Positions 29,832 to 45,408 of a stretch of 64,000 bases of DNA are shown piece after piece. The position numbers and the translations under genes are program-made. The notes beneath the pieces were generated by a model. That model was given only the letters and a program-made list of their open reading frames with translations. It ran no database searches and was not told the DNA's origin. Where the stretch lies: NCBI RefSeq assembly GCF_055900595.2, contig NZ_CM148325.1. The stretch is one strand, 5' to 3'. Each line of letters begins with the position of its first letter. Positions within the stretch are counted from its first letter, which is position 1.

Positions 29832-30751
29832 TTACGAGTATTGCCCCTTCAGCCGCAGCGCATCCACATACCGTCCTTCACTGCAGGGCAAGATTACGAA
29901 AGCCCGCCCCGCAAGGACTGACGCGAGGTAGTTTCTGTCCATGGCTGCTTTTATCATCTTACGTCTTAACCCTGCCTTGGTTTCGCCGTACTGCACCTGC
30001 CAGGCGCGGGGTGGATAATTTTCCACCAGCCGCTTTTCCACCGGAAAGGAATATTCATCCAGTACTTCATCGAGAATATCCACCACGGTTTTGTTCTGGA
30101 ACGCTTTGTAGTCGCTGGTATGGGTCAGCAGCTTCAGCCATGGCTCAATGCGTAATTCATACGTTACCGAACGGCCCTCATGGCCGACCACCCTCGCCGC
30201 CGTCACCAGCCCGCTGATATACCGTTTTCCGCCACCGTCCAGTTCGATACTGACGCACAGGTCTTTGCCTACCATGGGCTGAAGCGGCAGGTTGGCGGCG
30301 AGGGAGACATATCCGAGGTTCAGGGTGTCCGGGGTTTTAAGCTGTACTATGTAGGAAAACAGGTTTCCAAGCCCTTCCGAACCATTCATGCCTGCAAACA
30401 AAAGCAGCTGCGGCGGCACCGCACTACCACTTACTGTGACGTTATGCCCCCCGGACCACCGGCAGCAAGCGACGCCGCCGCATCCTGAACTGCACCAGCC
30501 ATATCCGAGATCCCTGCTGCGGCGGCTGCGGCTTGCGCAGCAGCTACTGCGGCTTTAACCAGACCTGACGGTTCCGGCAACGCACCAAACAGGTCCGCCG
30601 CGGCCTGTTCTGCCATCTGCTCGGCTGCATCAGCTACATCGGTTGCGGCTGAACTGGCGCTTACAGCACTACTTTCTCCGGCTATCGGTGGCGTGGAGAT
30701 AGCTGGCCCACCGTTACTGCCAGATTTATTACCCGTAGATACAAAACTCAT
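29832..30751 (-). pseudogene. vgrG: Truncated, frameshifted vgrG duplicate fused to H-repeat and tagF 3' remnants
   Basis: Two ORFs (30431-30751 and 29832-30419) match the first ~270 aa of the full vgrG; frame broken at a C-run near 30445-30455; 3' end reads ...[24 protein letters not shown] (H-repeat protein C-terminus) then ...[10 protein letters not shown] (tagF C-terminus). Confidence 0.75.
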
Positions 30752-30775
30752 GATATTTATTCCTTTAATATCGGA

Positions 30776-31147
30776 TTAAAATTTTGCGCCCGGCGGCCAG
30801 AAAAAATAAGAAATAACCCGCCACTGTCCATCTTTATAATGAAAAAAACATGTCAGATTTAAATCCCCCCGCAAATGCCAAAACATTTCTTTGATGGGGA
30901 TATTTCTGAATTCAGGATTCGTTGAGCGATAGACATTTTCAATCTCTATATAATACTCACCGACTAATTTATAACGAGGCTTTATAAATTCATACGCTGG
31001 CTGACCATAGTTATTTAATAGAACATTCTCTTCAACTCCATTATACACACCACTCGCATTCAGATAAGCATACCCAGGAATATCAGACATGCTATTTTTC
31101 GCCCCACCCACTATCAAAAAAATAATCACAGCGTATATTAGTTTCAT
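30776..31147 (-). CDS. Putative periplasmic immunity protein (paralog of 28681-29067)
   Basis: 123-aa ORF with N-terminal hydrophobic signal-like segment; C-terminal half conserved with the other immunity paralog. Confidence 0.6.
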   Translation of the reverse strand: MKLIYAVIIFLIVGGAKNSMSDIPGYAYLNASGVYNGVEENVLLNNYGQPAYEFIKPRYKLVGEYYIEIENVYRSTNPEFRNIPIKEMFWHLRGDLNLTCFFHYKDGQWRVISYFFWPPGAKF

Positions 31148-31160
31148 TTTTTTACGCTTT

Positions 31161-31882
31161 TCACAAAAAATTAGAACCCGGAACCATTCTATTTAACCGC
31201 TCAATGACATTTCCCATATAACGAGAGCGCAGTTCCATACCAATATTCATTAACGCACTGGCATCCCCGGAGAATGGTGTAGTTGCTTTATCTGCATCAT
31301 CACTATAGTATTCATCGGTAAGATATCCAATAATATGCCCAAGCTCATGAGACAGCCCCATTTGCTTAGAGCAAACTTTTGATGAACCAAGACATTTAGC
31401 TGCTGCAACTATATCTTTAGAGTCAAGTTCAACGTATCGACTATTCCAGACAATGGAACTCTGACGAAAACTATTTGGATCATCATTATCAATTTTAAAC
31501 ACCACCACATCCCAATACCCATGACGATCAGTCTGAATTATTTCTATTGTGAAAGATAAATCCTTACCATTAAACTTACTGACAAACTCAGACTTCCCAG
31601 AAACGGATAAAAAAACCTTATTATTCCATGTTTGATTAATGACAAAAATAACTTTTCCATGAAAGGCTTTTTTTCCATATCTGTCCAATCAGTTTTTGCA
31701 TCCCATCTTTTTATCCAATTATATTTCCATCTCAGCAACAATGAGATTGCACCATTTTCACGGTCAATTCTTAAATCTCCCCAGGCATCATTGTCCCTGA
31801 TATATCGTTTATCCAGCATTAAGTCGTCATAAGCATCGTATGCCTGCTGAATAGCCTCATCATGAGAGTCACCCATGTTCAC
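31161..31882 (-). pseudogene. HExxH-motif putative effector, paralog of 29064-29765, apparently frameshifted
   Basis: Two overlapping ORFs (31544-31882 N-terminal part, 31161-31688 C-terminal part with HELGHIIGY and LMNIGMELRSRY); frame break near a T/A homopolymer at ~31660-31690. Confidence 0.6.
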
Positions 31883-32068
31883 CTCCTTATATTGCTATAT
31901 ATCCAATAAACCTGAAGATGCTTGCTTACCCACCAACGCAGACGGGACCAAGGGTAGCCTGAAGTCAACAGATAGCAATCAACTTGAAGTTCATGGGGAT
32001 ATTTGTTTCCCCATCTACACGTTTATCGTCATATTTTTGTATAGCTATTCTCAGCATTCGTGGGTAGA

Positions 32069-32190
32069 TTATTTTTTTTCCAACCGCAGCGCATCCACAT
32101 ACCGCCCCTCGCTGTTCTGCTGCCACAACCAGCCCAGCCCCTGCTGCGCCTGCGTTAACATTTTTGCTAGCCAGCACGGTCACGGCAGGC
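32069..32190. repeat. Remnant of tagF 3' end
   Basis: Minus-strand reading gives [26 protein letters not shown], matching the C-terminus of the intact TagF at 33163-33260 ([31 protein letters not shown]). Confidence 0.75.
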
Positions 32191-32206
32191 AATTCTATGA
32201 CAGGTA

Positions 32207-32680
32207 CTACTCATCCGTACAACCCAGCCCCCGGCGCTGAACCACTTCACTGGCAAACGTAGCTCCGGTTTTTTTCATTATTCCTTTTTGTATTTTTTGC
32301 AGCGCGGGAAATGAGATTCTCCTGCATGAATCCTCTTCCCATATATCACCAGTTACAGGGCTAACTGAAAATAGTCCCCACACATCTGTCGCTCCGGCGG
32401 AAGGAGAATCATAACCTACCCCAAAACTAAAATACCCAGGATGATACAGGTTACCTTTTTTATCTTTCAGAGAACCGTCAAGAAAAAACCCAGACAATTC
32501 CACATTATATTTTTCATTTTTTAGTGAAAAAACCAATAATGCCTGCGCCTGTATTTCAGTAAGACCTGACTGGTTAACAGTCGTTAGATCAAACCGCGGC
32601 ACATTCCTGATAAGAATTTCAGCACAACAATTCACGGACACGACCATGAAAAGCAATACTGATATTAATTTACAGGACAT
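32207..32680 (-). CDS. Putative periplasmic immunity protein for the adjacent GH73-like effector
   Basis: 157-aa ORF with signal-like N-terminus MSCKLISVLLFMVVSVNCCA; overlaps effector stop. Confidence 0.5.
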   Translation of the reverse strand: MSCKLISVLLFMVVSVNCCAEILIRNVPRFDLTTVNQSGLTEIQAQALLVFSLKNEKYNVELSGFFLDGSLKDKKGNLYHPGYFSFGVGYDSPSAGATDVWGLFSVSPVTGDIWEEDSCRRISFPALQKIQKGIMKKTGATFASEVVQRRGLGCTDE

Positions 32681-33135
32681 GTTATTCTCCGCTTAACCAT
32701 ATTAATCACCCCCACTAACTCACTAGCATAACCGGTATGGCCGCCATTACTGTTTTTACCTGAATTAAAACCAGAATCAATCAATGCCTGCGCAAATTGC
32801 TCCGGAGATTTTTTATTTCTGACCGCATTACCAAATCGGATTGCAAAGGACTTTCCGCTAGTTGAAAAAGAGGTATAAGTGGCAACCCACACTTGATTAC
32901 TCCCCAGCGGGTGAACCTGTCCTGACTGTAAAGGTGCCGGACCATGCATGGAAAAGTAGTTATTGTATTCTGTCGCGATTCTACCCTGCCCGTAAAAGGA
33001 CTCCTTTGCAGCAAGCCCCAGGATATTTTCCACAGGCACATCAAGTTGCTTAGCGATTAATTCACATTCTTTCAGATATTGCTGTACAAACCTGACTGCA
33101 CCAGTGTTATTACAGGCTTTATCATAAGACCCCAT
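32665..33135 (-). CDS. Putative T6SS glycoside-hydrolase effector (GH73/FlgJ-like glucosaminidase motif)
   Basis: 156-aa ORF without signal peptide; LGLAAKESFYGQGRIATEYNNYFSMHG resembles the GH73 catalytic-Glu region (A-x-E-S-x-x-G ... NN-x-F-G) as remembered; directly downstream of tagF. Confidence 0.5.
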   Translation of the reverse strand: MGSYDKACNNTGAVRFVQQYLKECELIAKQLDVPVENILGLAAKESFYGQGRIATEYNNYFSMHGPAPLQSGQVHPLGSNQVWVATYTSFSTSGKSFAIRFGNAVRNKKSPEQFAQALIDSGFNSGKNSNGGHTGYASELVGVINMVKRRITCPVN

Positions 33136-33162: not shown

Positions 33163-33933
33163 TTAATGCGGCCGGATATCCAGCCGCAACGCATCCACAT
33201 ACCGCCCCTCGCTGTTCTGCTGCCAGAACCAGCCCTGCCCCTGCTGCGCCTGCGTCAGCATTTTGTCCGGCCAGCCCGGCCACGGCAGGTGGCGCACACC
33301 GGGCAGTTCCACTACCGGCACGTCCGGCAGGCCGGTGAGTTCCCGGCTACGCTGCGGTACACGTCGTAAGCCGCGTAGCCACTGCGCCCAGCGCGGCCCC
33401 GGTCGCCACATCGCCCAGAGCTGGTCTGTCTGCTCCGCCAGTCGACCGCAGCGTTCTGTCTGTGGTGAGACATGAGCTGCCGTCAACTGCGCCAGCCAGT
33501 ACAGCCAGCCCTGTGTGTCATCCAGGCTCTCTTCCAGCCATTCCCGCCCGACACGCTGGTAAATCACCAGTGGCCACGGCCTGCCCGTACTGTCACGCGA
33601 GGCGGTCAGCACCCCGGTCAGCCACTCATCGCGCCCGCCAATGGGGAGAAATCCCGGCGACAGCACAAAACTCCACGGCAATGGGTGGTGCTCCGGTAGT
33701 GCCGTTTTCTCACGTGGTGACAGGTGCATCCAGCCGTCATTTGTTCCGGCCTTCTCGGCATCCGCGCCGTCCGGCACCACGATATGCCGCCCCTGTCCCA
33801 GCCACGTCTGCTGGTTCAGCCACGCCTGCCACACCTGCCCTTCGTTCGCGCTCACCCGCCAGCGCACGTAGTCCCGCTGGTCCGGCAGTCTGCCGAACAT
33901 CGCCGGAGCCGATACCTCTGCCCGGCGCATCAC
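33163..33933 (-). CDS. tagF: T6SS-associated protein TagF
   Basis: 256-aa ORF translationally coupled to the tssM stop (ATGA overlap); region PWSFVLSPGFLPIGGRDEWLTGVLTASRDSTGRPWPLVIY resembles TagF as remembered. Confidence 0.7.
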   Translation of the reverse strand: MMRRAEVSAPAMFGRLPDQRDYVRWRVSANEGQVWQAWLNQQTWLGQGRHIVVPDGADAEKAGTNDGWMHLSPREKTALPEHHPLPWSFVLSPGFLPIGGRDEWLTGVLTASRDSTGRPWPLVIYQRVGREWLEESLDDTQGWLYWLAQLTAAHVSPQTERCGRLAEQTDQLWAMWRPGPRWAQWLRGLRRVPQRSRELTGLPDVPVVELPGVRHLPWPGWPDKMLTQAQQGQGWFWQQNSEGRYVDALRLDIRPH

Positions 33934-36900
33934 AGCGCTCGCTCCGGGCAGGCGAAGCGTTGCAATAGCCCGCGGTTCACCGGGTCAAAATCCCGTCCGG
34001 CGGTGATTTCCAGCACCACCCGCCGCCCGTCAAAACTGTACTCCACCTGCTGTGTTCCCCGTACCACCGTCTCCTGCGCGTTACCCGCATCCAGCAGGTG
34101 AAACAGCGCCCATGGCCCGTTAGTCAGCAACGTCGAGGTGTCCTGGCGGATGCGCGGGCTGGCGGTGATTTCCGCCATTGAGCCGTTGCGCGGCCCCGGC
34201 CAGTTCACTTTCAGCGGCCTGACCGGGCCGTGAGCGTAGCGAAGCACCTGGCCGTCAATGTCAATCACCAGTTCGGTGATGGCAGGGTCCATATCCACCA
34301 CCCGCACCTGCATCGCCCAGGAAAACTTTTTCCCGCCTTCCCCATTAAAAAAAACGCTGCGGATCTGTTTCGCCTCCTGAAACGGTGTCAGGTCCGGCCC
34401 AAGCAACGTCATGTTGCCTTCGGTCGGTTTGTAGCGCCACGGGTTGCTGGCGGTGTCCGCCAGTGGGGCCAGTTGCTTCGTCCAGAACGCATCCAGCACG
34501 CCGCCGCTGGCAAAGATATGGTTAAAATCGTCCGCGCTGACTTCCTGCGGGCTGTCGGTGAAGGGGTAGCGCCCGTCGATGGCGTCGCGGCACTCATCAC
34601 CGATCACCGCTTCCATCTGCGCGTTCAGCACTTCACCGGTGCCGGCGTTGATTTTTCGCGTTCCCTGCTGCGTGAGATCCAGCAGAATATTTTTCAGTGG
34701 CGCGGGCAGTTTTGCCGCCTCCAATTGCAGTTTATCCGCCGCAGAAATGCGGCCAGGTAATGTGCTCGCTGCCAGTGCACTATCAGCGATGGTGAGCTGG
34801 GTGTAATACTCATTGAGCATCGTCAGCAGCGAATTTAACTGCGGCGCGCCGCCGCCCTGCCCGCTGTCTGTCCGCCCGGAAACCACTTCCCGCAAGGCGG
34901 CGAAACGGTCATCCACCAGTGATTTCTCTAGCCGCTCTTCCGGGTGGATGTCCTGCAATAGCTTTGCCGTCTGCACTGCTTTTCCCACATTGCCGGAGAG
35001 CCGGTCCTGCGTGCGCTGGGCCATCTGCTTTTGTCTGGCCTGCGCATCCAGCGGCGGCACCAGCGTGGTCTGCTCCACCACCGCTTTACTCAGGCGCATC
35101 AGCGGGGAATCCGGCGAGGCCAGGGTACGCAGCACCTGAAGGTCATACGCCAGCCCGGGACTGCCGTCTTCCCCGGCACTGTTGATGCTGTGAATACTGG
35201 CCAGAAAATCCTGCCAGCGGCGGGCATATTCAGCCAGGTACAGGCGGCGTACCTCACGGGTAACCGGGAGTTCCTGCCCCGGCAACTGGCTCATCACAAT
35301 ATCCGTCGTTTTTTTTTGCGTGTTTTCCCGGCCCATCACCCAGGCGTCGTCCGCTGATGCGGCTGCGACAAACTCCGACAGCCGTTTGTCGAACAGTTCC
35401 CGGTAGCCTTCGCGAGTGAAGATGCCGGGCACGCCCCGATCCAGCGGCGCGCCATCCGTGCGGACAAAAACCGTTCCCGCATCCGCGCCCACAGCGCGAA
35501 CCAGCGAAAACTCCTGCGGTGCTTCGCTCTCCATGGAAGCCAGGGCTCGAGTGTAGATACGCTCGGTGCTGGTATGGCCGTCAAGGAAAGCTCGCGCCTG
35601 GCGGATCAGCCCCTCATCTTTTTCCCAGGGCAAATGCACCACGCGGCTGCCGTCAAACAGGGCATCGATATGCTCCAGCACGGCGGCGCGACCGCCGAAC
35701 TCCGCCACGCTGTCGCGGTTGCCCAGGTCGTTCAGCACCCAGGCGTGGATCTCCGCCGCGTTGTATTTATCCTCGTGGTCCTTATCGAGGTTCAGCAACA
35801 GATAAACATGCAGGGCGTCATAGGCGGCTTTGCTGTCCTGACGCGCAATCGCATCCGAAAGCACGTATTCCATGCGTTTCACCAGCGGTGGCAGCAGTAA
35901 CTGGTCCAGCAGACGGTCATACAGGGATGCGACGCTCTCCATCACCGGCGGAACGCTGTAAAGACCATAACACCAGGCCAGCGGCGGCGAGTCCGGGTCC
36001 AGTCCCGGCCATGCAGAGAGCGCCCGTGCCTGGTTCAGCAGGGCCGGAACAGGCTGCATAGCAGGTTTTCCGGTATAGGCTTTGACATCACCATCCAGTT
36101 GGGTCGTCCGGCTGGCGATTTCATTCAGATAACCGCTGTTCCCCTGCTGGCTACCCTGCATGCCCTGCCACAACCAGAAAGCCAGCGCCAGTACCAGCAG
36201 ATGCCCGCCAGTACGCAGCAGGCGATAACGCCAGGCCCATTGAAGATTCGGCTCCACCAGGTGCGCTTCGCGGAAGATAAACTGCGTCAGTAGATCGTGC
36301 AGGAAATAGCTGCGGTTGCCGTCCGGCAGGGTATGGGATGGGGAATCAGCCTTCCCTTTGATCGCCCGGACAAAACGCTGCCAGATGCCCGACTGGTCAG
36401 CCACGGCGTCTGCCTGCGCCTGCGCGGCGCTGGTAAAAAATACGCCGCGCAGGGTGTTGTTAAGCTGGGTGGCGTCAAATTTTGAGTCGAGGAAAATCTG
36501 CTCAATGGCTTCCAGCAGCGGCGCACCCAGCGCGGCAAATTCACGCGGGAAGCGGTAGAGCCGCTGGCGGCTTTGAAGGTCGTACTCTTCCTGCAACCGG
36601 GTATCCAGCCCCTGATCCAGCCGCAGCGTCAGGTTTGCCAGTTCCCGGCCACAGAGCGCATGCAGCGACTGCGGATCGCTGGCGTGACGCCTGCGGCTGT
36701 AAGGCAGGGTGAAGCCCCAAACCTGGGCGCGCAGGTGGCTGGTCAGCCCGTGGAAATACTCCGTAAAGCCCGGCAGCAGATCCATTTTGGTGACGACCAG
36801 ATAGACCGGAAAACGAATACCCAGCGTCTCCCGCAGTTCCGCCAGCCGCGCACGCAGGGCCGCACAGGCAGCCAGTCGTTCCGCCGGGGACTGCGCGGTC

Positions 36901-37796
36901 AGATCCGCCACGTTCAGCGTCAGGATCACACCGTTGAGCGGTGCGCCAGGGCGGTGCTTACGCAGCAGCCCAAGAAACCCCTGCCACTCCCCGGCGTTAC
37001 GCTGAGTCGCGCTGATTTCGCCGCCGTCATCGTGGCGGGCATAGCGCCCGGCGGTATCGATGAGTACAGCCTCGTTGGTGAACCACCAGTCACAGTGCAG
37101 CGTGCCGCCGCCCGGCACGGTGAGGATATGCGCGGTCTGCTCCATCTGCTCCGCCAGCGGAAACTGTAGCCCGGTGTTAAGTAGCGCGGTGGTTTTGCCA
37201 TCGCCGGGGCTGCCGATAACCATAAACCACGGCAGTTCGTACAGGAAGCGCTTCCCTTCCAGGACCTTACGCCAGCCGGGCAGGTCCACCCGCAGTTGTT
37301 TCAGTTGCCGGATGGCACGGGTGACAATATGGCTGACCGTGCGCAGGTCGGCTTTAATTTCCCCGGCCACCGGCACGTCTTCCCCGCGCGGATGCAGGAA
37401 ACGGCGCAGCAGTTGTTCATCCAGGCGCAGCGCCCGCCACAGTCGGTACAGGCCATAAAGCGCATAAGTCAGCAGGATCAGGCCGATAAGCGTCAGACGC
37501 AGCCACAGCGGCGCAAACGGGCGAACGTCACCGAAGGCCAGCAGGGGTGAAACAAAACCGATGACCAGGCACAGAACCGTTACGCCAATGATGCTCATCG
37601 ACCAGTTCACCAGCCACAGGGCGAGGAACATCAGTAACAGAACGATGGTGACTACCCGGCTCCCCACAGATGCCAGCGGATGCAGGGTATCAAACGCCAC
37701 CAGCGGCCCGATAAACCAGACCAGCAACGCCAGCATCACCACGCCGACAACGGCCAGCGCGCGGCGGGAAAACAGCATACTGAGAAATTTTTGCAT
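33930..37796 (-). CDS. tssM: T6SS membrane core protein TssM (IcmF)
   Basis: 1288-aa ORF with N-terminal transmembrane helices, Walker A (GSPGDGKTT) and long periplasmic region. Confidence 0.9.
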   Translation of the reverse strand: MQKFLSMLFSRRALAVVGVVMLALLVWFIGPLVAFDTLHPLASVGSRVVTIVLLLMFLALWLVNWSMSIIGVTVLCLVIGFVSPLLAFGDVRPFAPLWLRLTLIGLILLTYALYGLYRLWRALRLDEQLLRRFLHPRGEDVPVAGEIKADLRTVSHIVTRAIRQLKQLRVDLPGWRKVLEGKRFLYELPWFMVIGSPGDGKTTALLNTGLQFPLAEQMEQTAHILTVPGGGTLHCDWWFTNEAVLIDTAGRYARHDDGGEISATQRNAGEWQGFLGLLRKHRPGAPLNGVILTLNVADLTAQSPAERLAACAALRARLAELRETLGIRFPVYLVVTKMDLLPGFTEYFHGLTSHLRAQVWGFTLPYSRRRHASDPQSLHALCGRELANLTLRLDQGLDTRLQEEYDLQSRQRLYRFPREFAALGAPLLEAIEQIFLDSKFDATQLNNTLRGVFFTSAAQAQADAVADQSGIWQRFVRAIKGKADSPSHTLPDGNRSYFLHDLLTQFIFREAHLVEPNLQWAWRYRLLRTGGHLLVLALAFWLWQGMQGSQQGNSGYLNEIASRTTQLDGDVKAYTGKPAMQPVPALLNQARALSAWPGLDPDSPPLAWCYGLYSVPPVMESVASLYDRLLDQLLLPPLVKRMEYVLSDAIARQDSKAAYDALHVYLLLNLDKDHEDKYNAAEIHAWVLNDLGNRDSVAEFGGRAAVLEHIDALFDGSRVVHLPWEKDEGLIRQARAFLDGHTSTERIYTRALASMESEAPQEFSLVRAVGADAGTVFVRTDGAPLDRGVPGIFTREGYRELFDKRLSEFVAAASADDAWVMGRENTQKKTTDIVMSQLPGQELPVTREVRRLYLAEYARRWQDFLASIHSINSAGEDGSPGLAYDLQVLRTLASPDSPLMRLSKAVVEQTTLVPPLDAQARQKQMAQRTQDRLSGNVGKAVQTAKLLQDIHPEERLEKSLVDDRFAALREVVSGRTDSGQGGGAPQLNSLLTMLNEYYTQLTIADSALAASTLPGRISAADKLQLEAAKLPAPLKNILLDLTQQGTRKINAGTGEVLNAQMEAVIGDECRDAIDGRYPFTDSPQEVSADDFNHIFASGGVLDAFWTKQLAPLADTASNPWRYKPTEGNMTLLGPDLTPFQEAKQIRSVFFNGEGGKKFSWAMQVRVVDMDPAITELVIDIDGQVLRYAHGPVRPLKVNWPGPRNGSMAEITASPRIRQDTSTLLTNGPWALFHLLDAGNAQETVVRGTQQVEYSFDGRRVVLEITAGRDFDPVNRGLLQRFACPERAL

Positions 37797-38083
37797 TATT
37801 GTTCAGAACTCCATGCGAGAATCAGTAATAGCAAAATGCCGCAAGCTGAAAAAATCCTTCCAGTACGGGCTACTGAAAGAAAATAAAGAGCAATCTGAAC
37901 AATTATCAAAATAAAATAAATCAACATTTTGATTATTTCTCTGTTCCCATTTCCCTGAGGCAACGTTGTCATTGAAGGATCCATATCCTGCATCCATTGA
38001 TACTCATTCCCGGAAAAAAGCATGATGATGATCAGACCCATAATGAATAACAACCATCCTGATATCTGAATTATTCTTCTCAC
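37796..38083 (-). CDS. Small predicted membrane protein (2-3 TM helices), unknown function
   Basis: 95-aa ORF dominated by hydrophobic helices; between the 227-aa ORF and tssM. Confidence 0.45.
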   Translation of the reverse strand: MRRIIQISGWLLFIMGLIIIMLFSGNEYQWMQDMDPSMTTLPQGNGNREIIKMLIYFILIIVQIALYFLSVARTGRIFSACGILLLLILAWSSEQ

Positions 38084-38091
38084 GAAGACTC

Positions 38092-38775
38092 CTAATGGGC
38101 GATGAGTAAATTAGAGAAATGCAACCAGTTGTTGACAATAAAATTGCCATAGCTGGTATCTTCCTTTATTTTCTCCAGAGTAAGCGACATACCCCGGTTA
38201 TAACGGGCACCAATAATTCTTATCTGCTCTTTCGTCAGGTGTGGTAAGGAGGACTGAAATTCATCTCTTTCAGCTAATTGATAAAGATGTCTGGCCACAA
38301 GTTGAATATTAAAAATATCATGCTGGAGGCAATTTGCCAGTTCACGCAATTGAGAGGTATCCATTTTTGACTCATCAAGCCCAAGCGTTCTGGCTGCGGT
38401 TCGCAATTGCATACTCACTGCACCAAAAGATGTTTTTTCTGGTCTCGAAGTTATTGTGATATGTTCATCAATCCACTCAGGCCCACTCCAGTCAATAGTC
38501 CGAGCATCAAATGCCAGCATATCTACAATACTGGGATCCCCCCCGACTTCTATCCAACACACACCTGCCAGTAAAGGTGCTGGCAAATTATATGTATTGG
38601 CAGCCGATGTTATCAGAAGATGGTTATGTTTTACCCAGCCATCTTTGAAATAACGCCCAAACGGTACACCACCGCCCCATTTTTTTGGCGCTAATTTCCA
38701 GAAAAGAAATTCGGTCACGCCCCATACCGGTGAATGATTCGATGCATTGCAGTCCAGATTATTCATTTTTCTCAC
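38092..38775 (-). CDS. Hypothetical T6SS-embedded protein (227 aa), unknown function
   Basis: ORF overlapping the tssL stop; no signal peptide; no family recognised. Confidence 0.5.
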   Translation of the reverse strand: MRKMNNLDCNASNHSPVWGVTEFLFWKLAPKKWGGGVPFGRYFKDGWVKHNHLLITSAANTYNLPAPLLAGVCWIEVGGDPSIVDMLAFDARTIDWSGPEWIDEHITITSRPEKTSFGAVSMQLRTAARTLGLDESKMDTSQLRELANCLQHDIFNIQLVARHLYQLAERDEFQSSLPHLTKEQIRIIGARYNRGMSLTLEKIKEDTSYGNFIVNNWLHFSNLLIAH

Positions 38776-40088
38776 TCCACCACCAGAATTTCCACCCGAC
38801 GGTTCTGCGCCCGTCCGGTTTTAGTGCTGTTATCGGCCACCGGTACGGTATCTCCTTTCCCGACGACCCGAATCCGGCTGACCGGAACACCACCGGACGT
38901 CAGCAGTGAAGCCACTTCCGTCGCCCGTTTTTCCGACAACACCTGGTTGGAGGGGAATTCAGCGGAGTGGATCGGCTGACTGTCGGTGTGTCCGGTCACC
39001 GTCACCGCGCCGCCCACACGCGCAATCTCTCGCGCGGCCTTATCAATCACCGGGCTTAGCGCATCATTCACGGTTTTCTGCCCTGGTATAAACATCGTAT
39101 CGCCACGAAAGATTACACGGCTGTGATGGTCATCTTCCTCCACCGTCAGCAGGCCACGGGCGATTTCGTTCGCCAGCAGGATTTTCAGCCGCAGTTTATG
39201 CACTGGAACGGGTGGCGGCGGTAGATTTTTACCAATGGCGTCGATACGCTGTTGTACGGTTTCGATAGCGAGGTTCATCCGGTGGCTGTAAAGGCCAAAC
39301 AGCGTCAGCATCACCAGCAGGGCGATTCCGGCACTCAGCCAGACCGGCACGCGGCGCATCCGTCGCATTCGCCCACTGACGGCACCGGCAAAACCCGGCG
39401 AGAGCGTCGGCGTGATCGGATCGCGACGCTGGACCAGTTGAGTCAGCAGTTGCTGACGAATATCGTCCAGTTGTTTACGTCCGTCAGGCCGTACACTGTA
39501 GCGGCCTTCAAAACCCAGCCCCAGAATGTGGTAAATGATCTCCAGTACATCGTTGTGCTCCTGGAAGCTTGCGGCCAGACGCCCAATTATCTGAAACAGC
39601 TTGATGCCGCCTTCACTTTCGCCATGAAAAGTGACCAGCAGGCTTTTTCCAGCCCAGACACCGCGCCGCCCCCAGGTGGTGTTGTTGGCGGCTTCGTCCA
39701 GCGAAGTGCATAGGCAATAACGCACAGCCAGCACATGTTCGCGGCGAAGGTTTGCCTGATCGCATAACGTCTGATATCGACGAACTTCACGCTCCAGTAG
39801 GGCACGATAATGTTCGACAAAACCAGGGGATAGTTCACGGGGCATTTGCGCCAGCGCGCACAGCAGAGGGCTTGCCGCCGCTAAAAGGGGATTCACGGCA
39901 GCGGTGATTTCAGCCAGCCGGATCTTCACATCCGGGCCGTCTTCAACCACCACCTTTATATCTTCCCTGCGAAGGTTGTCCTGTATTGCCGTATCGTAAC
40001 CGTCACTGTCGGGCAGTTTTACTCCCCCGGCTGATGGCTGGAAGGGCAGGGTATTCGCCGCAGGCGGCGTCAGGATCTCATCGGTCAT
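38772..40088 (-). CDS. tssL: T6SS membrane protein TssL (DotU) fused to C-terminal OmpA-like peptidoglycan-binding domain
   Basis: 438-aa ORF: DotU-like cytoplasmic domain, one TM segment, C-terminal OmpA-type region (TVTGHTDS...NRRVEILV). Confidence 0.85.
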   Translation of the reverse strand: MTDEILTPPAANTLPFQPSAGGVKLPDSDGYDTAIQDNLRREDIKVVVEDGPDVKIRLAEITAAVNPLLAAASPLLCALAQMPRELSPGFVEHYRALLEREVRRYQTLCDQANLRREHVLAVRYCLCTSLDEAANNTTWGRRGVWAGKSLLVTFHGESEGGIKLFQIIGRLAASFQEHNDVLEIIYHILGLGFEGRYSVRPDGRKQLDDIRQQLLTQLVQRRDPITPTLSPGFAGAVSGRMRRMRRVPVWLSAGIALLVMLTLFGLYSHRMNLAIETVQQRIDAIGKNLPPPPVPVHKLRLKILLANEIARGLLTVEEDDHHSRVIFRGDTMFIPGQKTVNDALSPVIDKAAREIARVGGAVTVTGHTDSQPIHSAEFPSNQVLSEKRATEVASLLTSGGVPVSRIRVVGKGDTVPVADNSTKTGRAQNRRVEILVVE

Positions 40089-42032: not shown

Positions 42033-42524
42033 TTAAATTTCTTTATTGGCCTTGAAGTCGTAGCCTGCGGTGATGGTGCCGCCGCTGCCACCTTGCTGGT
42101 TTTGCACCACGTATTCCTGCTTCACGGTGCTGAAAGAGAGTTCGACTGTTTCACGGGAGGCAATTTCACCTTCTTTACTGCCGCTGGGCGATACAACCGC
42201 CACAATCAGGTCAGTGAAGGTATATTTGAGATATTCCAGCGGATTGCCGCCTGCTTTACGCATGGTCAGCACAGCTTTCGGAATGTGTTTGCCAGAGGCG
42301 CAGTACTTGAACAGGTTCGGACTGGCGCGATCGATATAGTGGTCAAAGTCCAGGTTAGTCACGGAGACTTTACCGGATCCCAGACCGCTGCCCGCGTGCA
42401 TGGTGGATTCCTGGTGGATATTCCAGCGCCAGCTCAGCACCTCAATTTCATTTTTATGTTTGTCATCCATTGACTCGCCGTCAATACCGTCAATTTTCAG
42501 AAAAATGTCATAAGCCATTTTCAT
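42033..42524 (-). CDS. hcp: T6SS tube protein Hcp (TssD)
   Basis: 163-aa ORF; MAYDIFLKIDGIDGES... typical Hcp N-terminus. Confidence 0.95.
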   Translation of the reverse strand: MKMAYDIFLKIDGIDGESMDDKHKNEIEVLSWRWNIHQESTMHAGSGLGSGKVSVTNLDFDHYIDRASPNLFKYCASGKHIPKAVLTMRKAGGNPLEYLKYTFTDLIVAVVSPSGSKEGEIASRETVELSFSTVKQEYVVQNQQGGSGGTITAGYDFKANKEI

Positions 42525-44899: not shown

Positions 44900-45190
44900 T
44901 TAAAAATCATACGCAGAGAGTATTTTTATAATCTCTTTGTTTTCTTTGTACTTTTCCCGCAGCACAGGGAGTGATTTCTTCGCTGGAGGACACCAGGTAT
45001 CAACCCCCTTTTCGATGTCTCTTTTATCCTTCTCTGGTAAAGAACTGTCCCATTCACCAGCAAGATGCTGGCACATTTCCGCATTACTCAGAAAATGCTG
45101 CACATCCTGTGGTAAAGACGGTTCCCCCTGAACACTGAAAGCGAACATCATTAACAGGAATGTCCACAACACCGGATAACGAAATGTCAT
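44900..45190 (-). CDS. Small predicted secreted protein of unknown function within the T6SS operon
   Basis: 96-aa ORF with signal peptide (MTFRYPVLWTFLLMMFAFSVQG) and paired cysteines; between clpV and tssB. Confidence 0.45.
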   Translation of the reverse strand: MTFRYPVLWTFLLMMFAFSVQGEPSLPQDVQHFLSNAEMCQHLAGEWDSSLPEKDKRDIEKGVDTWCPPAKKSLPVLREKYKENKEIIKILSAYDF

Positions 45191-45408
45191 ACTTAATGTC
45201 CATCAATTGACCAGTGCATGAGATATGCTCTGGCGGGAGGGCGATATGTTGCAGAGATACTGCCCCTTGCACGCGCATTACCAAGCGCGCGCAAAAAATT
45301 TTCTACCGATGCACGAAAAGTCCCCTGCAAATCATTAGTGGAAGAACTTACAGGAAAGCGACTGACCCACATTGCGCCACTTAATTCTTTTGCCATAAGG
45401 ATGCTCCA

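Follow-up and report, generated by a model that had tools for sequence, protein, structure and literature searches.

A low-GC gene pair between tssL and tssM of an Escherichia coli type VI secretion cluster as a probable peptidoglycan-cleaving effector with a membrane immunity partner

Two small genes lie between tssL and tssM in a type VI secretion system (T6SS) cluster of Escherichia coli, inside a window of 64,000 nucleotides (the whole stretch of DNA analysed; NCBI RefSeq assembly GCF_055900595.2, contig NZ_CM148325.1), and they raise the question of whether this junction encodes a part of the secretion machine or its cargo. A sequence-only reading of the stretch had proposed that they are either an effector and its membrane immunity protein embedded in the operon or an accessory component that is not yet characterised. 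The results reported here, all of which come from computation on sequence, indicate that the pair is probably a horizontally acquired T6SS cargo effector that cleaves peptidoglycan, together with a DUF2645-like membrane immunity protein. The cluster sits between fadE-ivy-yafV and tRNA-Asp-dnaQ, and the slot and its flanks are composed as follows.

38092-38766, minus strand: effector gene, encoding a 224-aa predicted lysozyme/soluble lytic transglycosylase (SLT)-fold protein without signal peptide; an alternative GTG start at 38775 gives 227 aa.
37796-38083, minus strand: candidate immunity gene, an open reading frame (ORF) with a GTG start, encoding a 95-aa predicted inner-membrane protein with three transmembrane (TM) helices, a distant DUF2645/YgiZ relative.
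38772-40088, minus strand: tssL, long form with OmpA-like domain, upstream flank of the slot (NCBIfam TIGR03349 and TIGR03350; Prokaryotic Genome Annotation Pipeline, PGAP).
33930-37796, minus strand: tssM, downstream flank of the slot, whose start codon overlaps the stop of the small ORF (NCBIfam TIGR03348, E=0).

Both ORFs announced by the sequence-only reading were present on the minus strand (38092-38775 and 37796-38083). The GTG-initiated 227-aa frame overlapping the tssL stop does exist, but the ATG at 38766, which yields 224 aa, is the likelier start, because it lies 5 nt past the tssL stop and 8 nt past a GGAG, PGAP calls the gene at 675 nt, and the homologues start at this position. 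The GTG of the small ORF is preceded by a GGAG 5 nt upstream, and the N-termini of 29 homologues align there; one PGAP record calls a shorter, 81-aa form. Since the TAA of the small ORF overlaps the ATG of tssM (TAATG), the pair lies inside the tssL-tssM transcription unit; a promoter and terminator scan of the slot gave no informative result in this AT-rich stretch. The GC content of the 224-aa and 95-aa genes is 43% and 36%, respectively, versus 58% in tssL and 62% in tssM, and the base composition of the pair is foreign to the cluster. PGAP annotates both genes as hypothetical, with the small one named 'DUF2645 family protein' in some strains or identical alleles. The large protein has 299 homologues at E<=1e-3 (the best 120 of the 299 at E<=2.4e-76), and the pair occurs in 98 of 5426 complete E. 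coli genomes; the two ORFs are therefore real conserved genes and not chance ORFs.

In all 98 genomes the pair is present as a single copy, always in the tssL-tssM slot. Both genes were present in 98 of the 100 matching E. coli genomes, and the pattern of an orphan immunity gene was not seen for this allele. Comparison of the slot among strains revealed that in 15 other E. coli genomes, whose flanking tssL and tssM are the same, it contains a Tlde1 pair instead, consisting of a 122-aa Tlde1-domain protein (Pfam 7e-11) and a 147-aa protein (for example, E. coli JNE120442, L015:3025-3838). Tlde1 effectors are an established T6SS family that targets peptidoglycan, frequently in linkage with orphan hcp genes; the presence of the Tlde1 pair in the same slot therefore identifies the tssL-tssM junction as a site for exchangeable cargo and not for a core component. 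The 147-aa slot gene is named 'Shiga toxin A subunit' by PGAP in one record, a label that looks spurious (NCBIfam E ~0.006). A second allele in the same slot, with 81.5% nucleotide identity, was found in E. coli 06-00048 (L016:1697-3991), where tssL has an internal stop; a protein cluster with 85% identity (P0002) may represent this allele.

The exchange of slot content bears directly on the proposal of an accessory component, in which the 224-aa protein would be a dedicated T6SS lytic transglycosylase that opens the wall of the producer for TssJLM assembly, with the small membrane protein anchoring or regulating it. Such a wall-opening role is served by MltE in enteroaggregative E. coli and by TagX in Acinetobacter. 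However, sibling strains with the same cluster have a toxin pair in place of the supposed enzyme, and the base composition is foreign to the cluster. The N-terminus of the 224-aa protein, MNNLDCNASNHSPVWG, is polar and contains no hydrophobic signal sequence, in agreement with the earlier claim that a signal peptide is lacking; lipobox and TM segment are both absent as well, leaving the protein no means of reaching the periplasm of its producer. A frameshift or stop also breaks the effector frame in E. coli E69, Siccibacter colletis, Erwinia sp. 198 and a Pluralibacter metagenome-assembled genome (MAG), and in the T6SS cluster of E69 the flanking core genes are still found by tblastn. The Tlde1 swap and the E69 frameshift depart from the universal conservation across same-type clusters that is expected of an accessory enzyme. 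Moreover, most homologues lie outside T6SS clusters, and the domain is fused to PAAR, Rhs, WXG100 and extracellular contractile injection system (eCIS) delivery domains. The profile and structure searches that the sequence-only reading had named found no homology to a known structural T6SS accessory protein. The accessory proposal is thus disfavoured by the missing export signal and by the Tlde1 pair; we consider it very unlikely, and the pair is not a structural T6SS component.

To place the pair in its wider context, we surveyed its loci in 50 species. A three-TM ORF of 94-115 aa follows the effector gene on its 3' side in ~40 of the 50 species, starting between -3 and +20 nt relative to the effector stop. 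In Rhodanobacter, Burkholderia, Yersinia, Methylobacter and Cronobacter, the pair occurs on its own in unrelated surroundings, and linkage to T6SS delivery genes recurs in independent lineages: a relative with 64% identity uses the tssL-tssM slot again, the pair follows tagF in Snodgrassella, adjoins hcp in six loci (five Pseudomonas species and one Burkholderiaceae MAG) and vgrG or Rhs genes in three more, and ends an Rhs/immunity array in Paracidovorax. In Salmonella enterica, a pair with 81% identity heads an array of Rap1a-Tae4, Glucosaminidase-Tgi2PP and two DUF2195 genes with Tlde1, followed by VgrG. In this Salmonella array (L070:3766-11452, L071), the pair adjoins an insertion sequence (DDE_Tnp_1), and its position differs from that in E. 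coli. The pair is a mobile low-GC two-gene cassette that is found mostly outside T6SS clusters.

Analysis of distant homologues revealed that the toxin domain is modular and joined to known delivery domains, as the C-terminal part of proteins that begin with eCIS-core, PAAR, DUF4280, WXG100 or Rhs sequences. Among 36 distant homologues, ten were fused to eCIS_core and one each to PAAR, DUF4280 and WXG100, and the AFDB50 matches include RHS, PAAR, WXG100 and eCIS-core proteins. On a plasmid of Streptomyces sp. NBC_01201 (L012:5137-6884), the domain is C-terminal in a 460-478-aa protein, with the motifs WQEVGG, TSFGPIAIQ and RYNGG; its gene is followed by a 103-aa three-TM ORF, with polymorphic-toxin and contact-dependent inhibition (CDI) immunity genes a few kb away. 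This locus suggests that the pairing of toxin and membrane immunity protein exists in Gram-positive bacteria too. The Tlde1-allelic slot, the mobile cassette beside hcp, vgrG and Rhs, and the delivery-domain fusions together argue, at the level of sequence, for the effector/membrane-immunity alternative of the two first proposed.

A signal-less muralytic enzyme beside a ~95-aa multi-TM protein also resembles a lysis cassette, and the large protein matches PHROG 11932, a family whose function is not known, at 2.6e-73. The pair might accordingly be read as a holin/endolysin-like lysis or release module, from a prophage remnant or of a type 10 secretion-like kind and independent of the T6SS, in which the membrane protein passes the enzyme across the inner membrane. 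However, tblastn against 50,697 phage genomes gave no match, phage genes flank none of the loci examined, and the enzyme-first gene order and the predicted N-in/C-out topology, which lacks a charged C-terminal tail, do not fit a holin; nor would a lysis module be expected to recur beside hcp, vgrG and Rhs or to be fused to PAAR and WXG100. The members of PHROG 11932 may derive from prophage-border calls. We dropped the lysis reading, which we regard as extremely improbable, on the missing phage-genome match despite PHROG 11932.

The earlier claim that the large protein belongs to no recognised family held: a Pfam scan returned nothing at E<=10, and searches of NCBIfam, PADLOC and PDB by sequence or profile gave zero matches. 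The family itself is tightly conserved, with 55-60% identity over Gamma- and Betaproteobacteria, and the toxin domain matches 451 representative clusters (50% identity) at E<=1e-3. The AlphaFold2 (AF2) model of the effector alone, with a predicted template modelling score (pTM) of 0.79, has a predicted lysozyme-like alpha+beta fold with a substrate groove. Three motifs are common to Tse3 and SLT folds, namely I/V-x3-E, a G..Q in a hairpin and a C-terminal Tyr (PMC3792639). Putative counterparts of all three were found, as V69-x3-E73 in the terminal part of a predicted helix (63-73), G115...Q120 at a predicted beta-bridge (114/117) and Y189 within RYNRG; this matching was done by position in the sequence and predicted secondary structure. 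Glu73 is invariant in 46 of 46 close homologues and 36 of 36 distant fused homologues, Gln120 likewise in the 46 close and 36 distant homologues, and Tyr189 in the 46 close ones.

38548-38550, minus strand: Glu73 codon (WIE73VGGDP); this residue, at the C-terminal end of helix 63-73, is the predicted catalytic acid.

The putative SLT assignment rests on the predicted fold and the motifs, without significant sequence similarity, and SLT matches in distant relatives are weak (best 8.8e-3). The chemistry is most likely cleavage of the peptidoglycan glycan strand, and the model would fit either a muramidase or a lytic transglycosylase. The target might instead be lipid II, nascent uncross-linked glycan strands or another glycan, and not mature peptidoglycan; a membrane-proximal target of this kind would account for an immunity protein embedded in the membrane. 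By a large margin, however, the best structural matches are enzymes that cleave polymeric peptidoglycan, the set of Glu, Gln and Tyr motifs is typical of muramidases and lytic transglycosylases, and PG_binding_1 or OmpA domains, which bind the sacculus, are present in some distant relatives. An effector/immunity pair with such a membrane-proximal target is therefore unlikely in our estimation.

The 95-aa protein had been described as almost entirely TM helices, and three hydrophobic helices were indeed found (residues ~4-24, 51-72 and 75-92). Its basic residues are located at the N-terminus and between TM2 and TM3; by the positive-inside rule, this placement predicts that the N-terminus is cytoplasmic and that TM1 is followed by a periplasmic loop of ~25 residues. 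The prediction as a whole is N-in/C-out, and no cleavable signal peptide is present. In an alignment of 30 partner sequences, Tyr28 was invariant and KYxWM...DPS was the sole well-conserved stretch, with a Gln in TM2 also shared; the loop motif, a predicted short helix that separates TM1 from TM2, may have a binding role.

37973-38008, minus strand: loop motif N26-E-Y-Q-W-M-Q-D-M-D-P-S37 directly after TM1 of the 95-aa protein; proposed effector-binding determinant.

Mean column identity was 68% for the effector and ~31% for the partner, so that the bicistronic pairing is kept while the small gene diverges faster, as in effector/immunity pairs. Pfam DUF2645 (PF10840) matched the 95-aa protein at E=0.013, below significance, and within the partner family PF10840 was matched by 2 of 30 sequences at E<=1e-3, rising to 11 of 30 at E<=0.1. 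Comparison of the partner family with E. coli YgiZ (DUF2645) by hhalign gave a probability of 84.8% (E 6.5e-6) over the NKYDWM motif. The 95-aa protein appears to form a sister subfamily of DUF2645 and is not a clear member.

Several results weigh against a glycan-cleaving T6SS effector with a membrane immunity protein. In the Foldseek search, Tse3 was top-ranked with weak E-values, 0.06 or worse against PDB entries. The SLT assignment is weak by sequence, the protein falling outside Pfam SLT (PF01464) and the Tse3/Tge family, and when the family was compared with E. coli MltD by hhalign, RYNRG with AYNSG was the sole part aligned (probability 0.9%, not significant). The loop at ~90-117, which adjoins the active site, was modelled with low confidence. 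The linker-fused, paired-alignment AF2 model of effector and immunity protein had a pTM of 0.63, versus 0.79 for the effector alone, a value that lends no support to a confident interface and is neutral on a direct complex. About 38 of the 50 surveyed loci had no T6SS gene within 8 kb, in a tblastn search that used E. coli queries only and therefore undercounts distant T6SS genes. A polytopic membrane immunity protein is, in addition, unusual for an effector that is a peptidoglycan hydrolase; Tsi3, Tgi2 and Tldi1 are soluble periplasmic proteins.

The relationship to YgiZ extends from the partner to the whole gene arrangement. Proteins with 30-37% identity to the effector occur in triads of hcp, toxin and DUF2645 genes on Serratia and Rahnella plasmids and on the E. 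coli chromosome. The E. coli triad is located between mdaB and qseC (L017:5456-6987) and consists of hcp, a gene for a 236-aa toxin paralogue (37% identical) and ygiZ. Among 5426 E. coli genomes, ygiZ is present in 4598 and the complete triad in 1261, and ~3300 genomes keep ygiZ alone; the K-12 derivative ER2683 has mdaB-ygiZ-qseC, with hcp and toxin both absent. An orphan immunity gene would be expected to show the distribution seen for ygiZ. No link of DUF2645 or ygiZ to T6SS immunity was found in the searchable full-text literature (for ygiZ, papers by title and abstract), subscription journals being outside the scope of the search; DUF2645 was named in none of the papers, and the 23 that mention ygiZ make no such connection. 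A broader and quite speculative proposal, which we put forward as doubtful, is that DUF2645/YgiZ-type three-TM proteins of ~100 aa constitute an unrecognised class of integral-membrane immunity proteins, ranging from Proteobacteria to Streptomyces, against an unannotated lysozyme-fold toxin delivered by the T6SS, eCIS or type VII secretion system (T7SS). Under this proposal, ygiZ would be an orphan shield in most E. coli, K-12 included, and the toxin would work at the membrane face of the wall, on nascent strands or lipid II, and not on the bulk sacculus.

For the pair in the window, we propose that the 224-aa effector is made in the cytoplasm without a signal peptide, is probably loaded in the Hcp tube and would be fired into Gram-negative neighbours, reaching their periplasm. 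In that compartment, the lysozyme/SLT-fold domain of the effector, with Glu73 as the acid and with Gln120 and Tyr189 lining the groove, would cleave peptidoglycan glycan strands. The 95-aa protein would be an inner-membrane protein with a cytoplasmic N-terminus, and its conserved ~25-residue periplasmic loop (NxYxWM..MDPS) would bind and block effector arriving from sister cells. We infer the dependence on Hcp, the periplasmic site of action, the substrate and the inhibition by the loop. The presumed carrier is encoded in the same cluster.

42033-42524, minus strand: hcp of the cluster (PGAP 'Hcp family'), presumed effector carrier by inference only; related effectors lie directly 3' of orphan hcp genes.

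If this proposal is true, a widespread peptidoglycan-targeting toxin domain (451 clusters, many delivery-domain fusions) would be added to the T6SS, eCIS and T7SS repertoire, and immunity would be conferred by a tiny polytopic membrane protein and not by a soluble inhibitor in the periplasm. As an exchangeable cargo slot, the tssL-tssM junction of the cluster by tRNA-Asp in E. coli is relevant to the typing of T6SS arsenals in both E. coli and Salmonella. A function is also suggested for DUF2645 and the K-12 orphan ygiZ, namely protection against the hcp-linked toxin paralogue that is present in about a quarter of E. coli strains.

The window contains other features of interest on the minus strand. 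Downstream of tagF (32207-33135), a 156-aa Glucosaminidase-domain protein (Pfam 5.5e-9) overlaps a 157-aa T6SS_Tgi2PP immunity protein (1.4e-13), and these form a Tge2/Tgi2-like module, the second peptidoglycan effector pair of the cluster. Past this pair, a stretch at ~30700-32500 with a GC content of 37-39% holds hypothetical ORFs (L013 13075-14177), and slightly beyond it lies a frameshifted 'phage late control D' (vgrG-like) remnant (L013 12299-13050); the stretch is probably a decayed effector/immunity island. Between tssH and tssB (44900-45396; L013 27201-27697), there are hypothetical ORFs of 96 and 67 aa with no Pfam match in a batch scan. In Salmonella pathogenicity island 6 (SPI-6), the tssH-tssB position is known as VR1 and is the site of Tae2/Tae4 modules.

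Neither a preprint on T6SS1 of Shiga toxin-producing E. coli nor a survey of Salmonella SPI-6 describes the pair or the tssL-tssM slot. Other candidates were set aside: Hcp2B/XmtU-XmtV of avian pathogenic E. coli is another toxin at another locus, Pantoea Pse1, Pse2 and the VgrG glucosaminidase are different proteins, PseM has a beta-sheet core fold, and T6EC3 is SleB-like. The SLT enzymes MltE, Slt70, MltC and MltF (PF01464) are exported or lipoproteins that act on the cell's own wall and have no immunity partner, in contrast to the effector here, which is under the Pfam SLT threshold, has Val and not Ser after the Glu, and has a Glu-to-Gln spacing ~17 residues longer. Tse3/Tsi3 (Tge1/Tgi1) of the Pseudomonas aeruginosa H1-T6SS shares 16% identity between Tse3 and the effector, with no sequence-level match. 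Tse3 (~400 aa, against 224 aa for the effector here) carries a further N-terminal domain and three Ca2+ sites (PMC3792639). Tsi3 is soluble, a beta-sandwich whose loops enter the groove, in contrast to the three-TM membrane protein that accompanies the effector here. Tge2/Tgi2, the glucosaminidase pair, is also a glycan-strand-cleaving T6SS pair, and examples lie downstream of tagF in this window and within the Salmonella array. The immunity proteins of Tge1-3/Tgi pairs are soluble or lipid-anchored in the periplasm, unlike the 95-aa three-TM partner.

Tlde1/Tldi1 (DUF2778 L,D-carboxypeptidase/transpeptidase; Salmonella SPI-6) is likewise a small cargo effector that targets peptidoglycan and has its immunity gene next to it, and it shares with the pair both the tssL-tssM slot, in 15 E. 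coli genomes, and the Salmonella array. However, its fold and chemistry are unrelated, since it cuts the peptide stem and not the glycan strand, and its immunity protein is a Sec-exported periplasmic protein (DUF2195). DUF2645 (PF10840; YgiZ, YjeO) resembles the 95-aa protein in size, in its three TM helices and in an NKYDWM-type motif after TM1, and YgiZ follows hcp and the 236-aa protein that is 37% identical to the effector. Against this background, what is new here is best described as a probable Tge-like glycan-cleaving cargo effector from an unannotated family, a proposed membrane-embedded type of immunity protein and an exchangeable slot inside the core operon.

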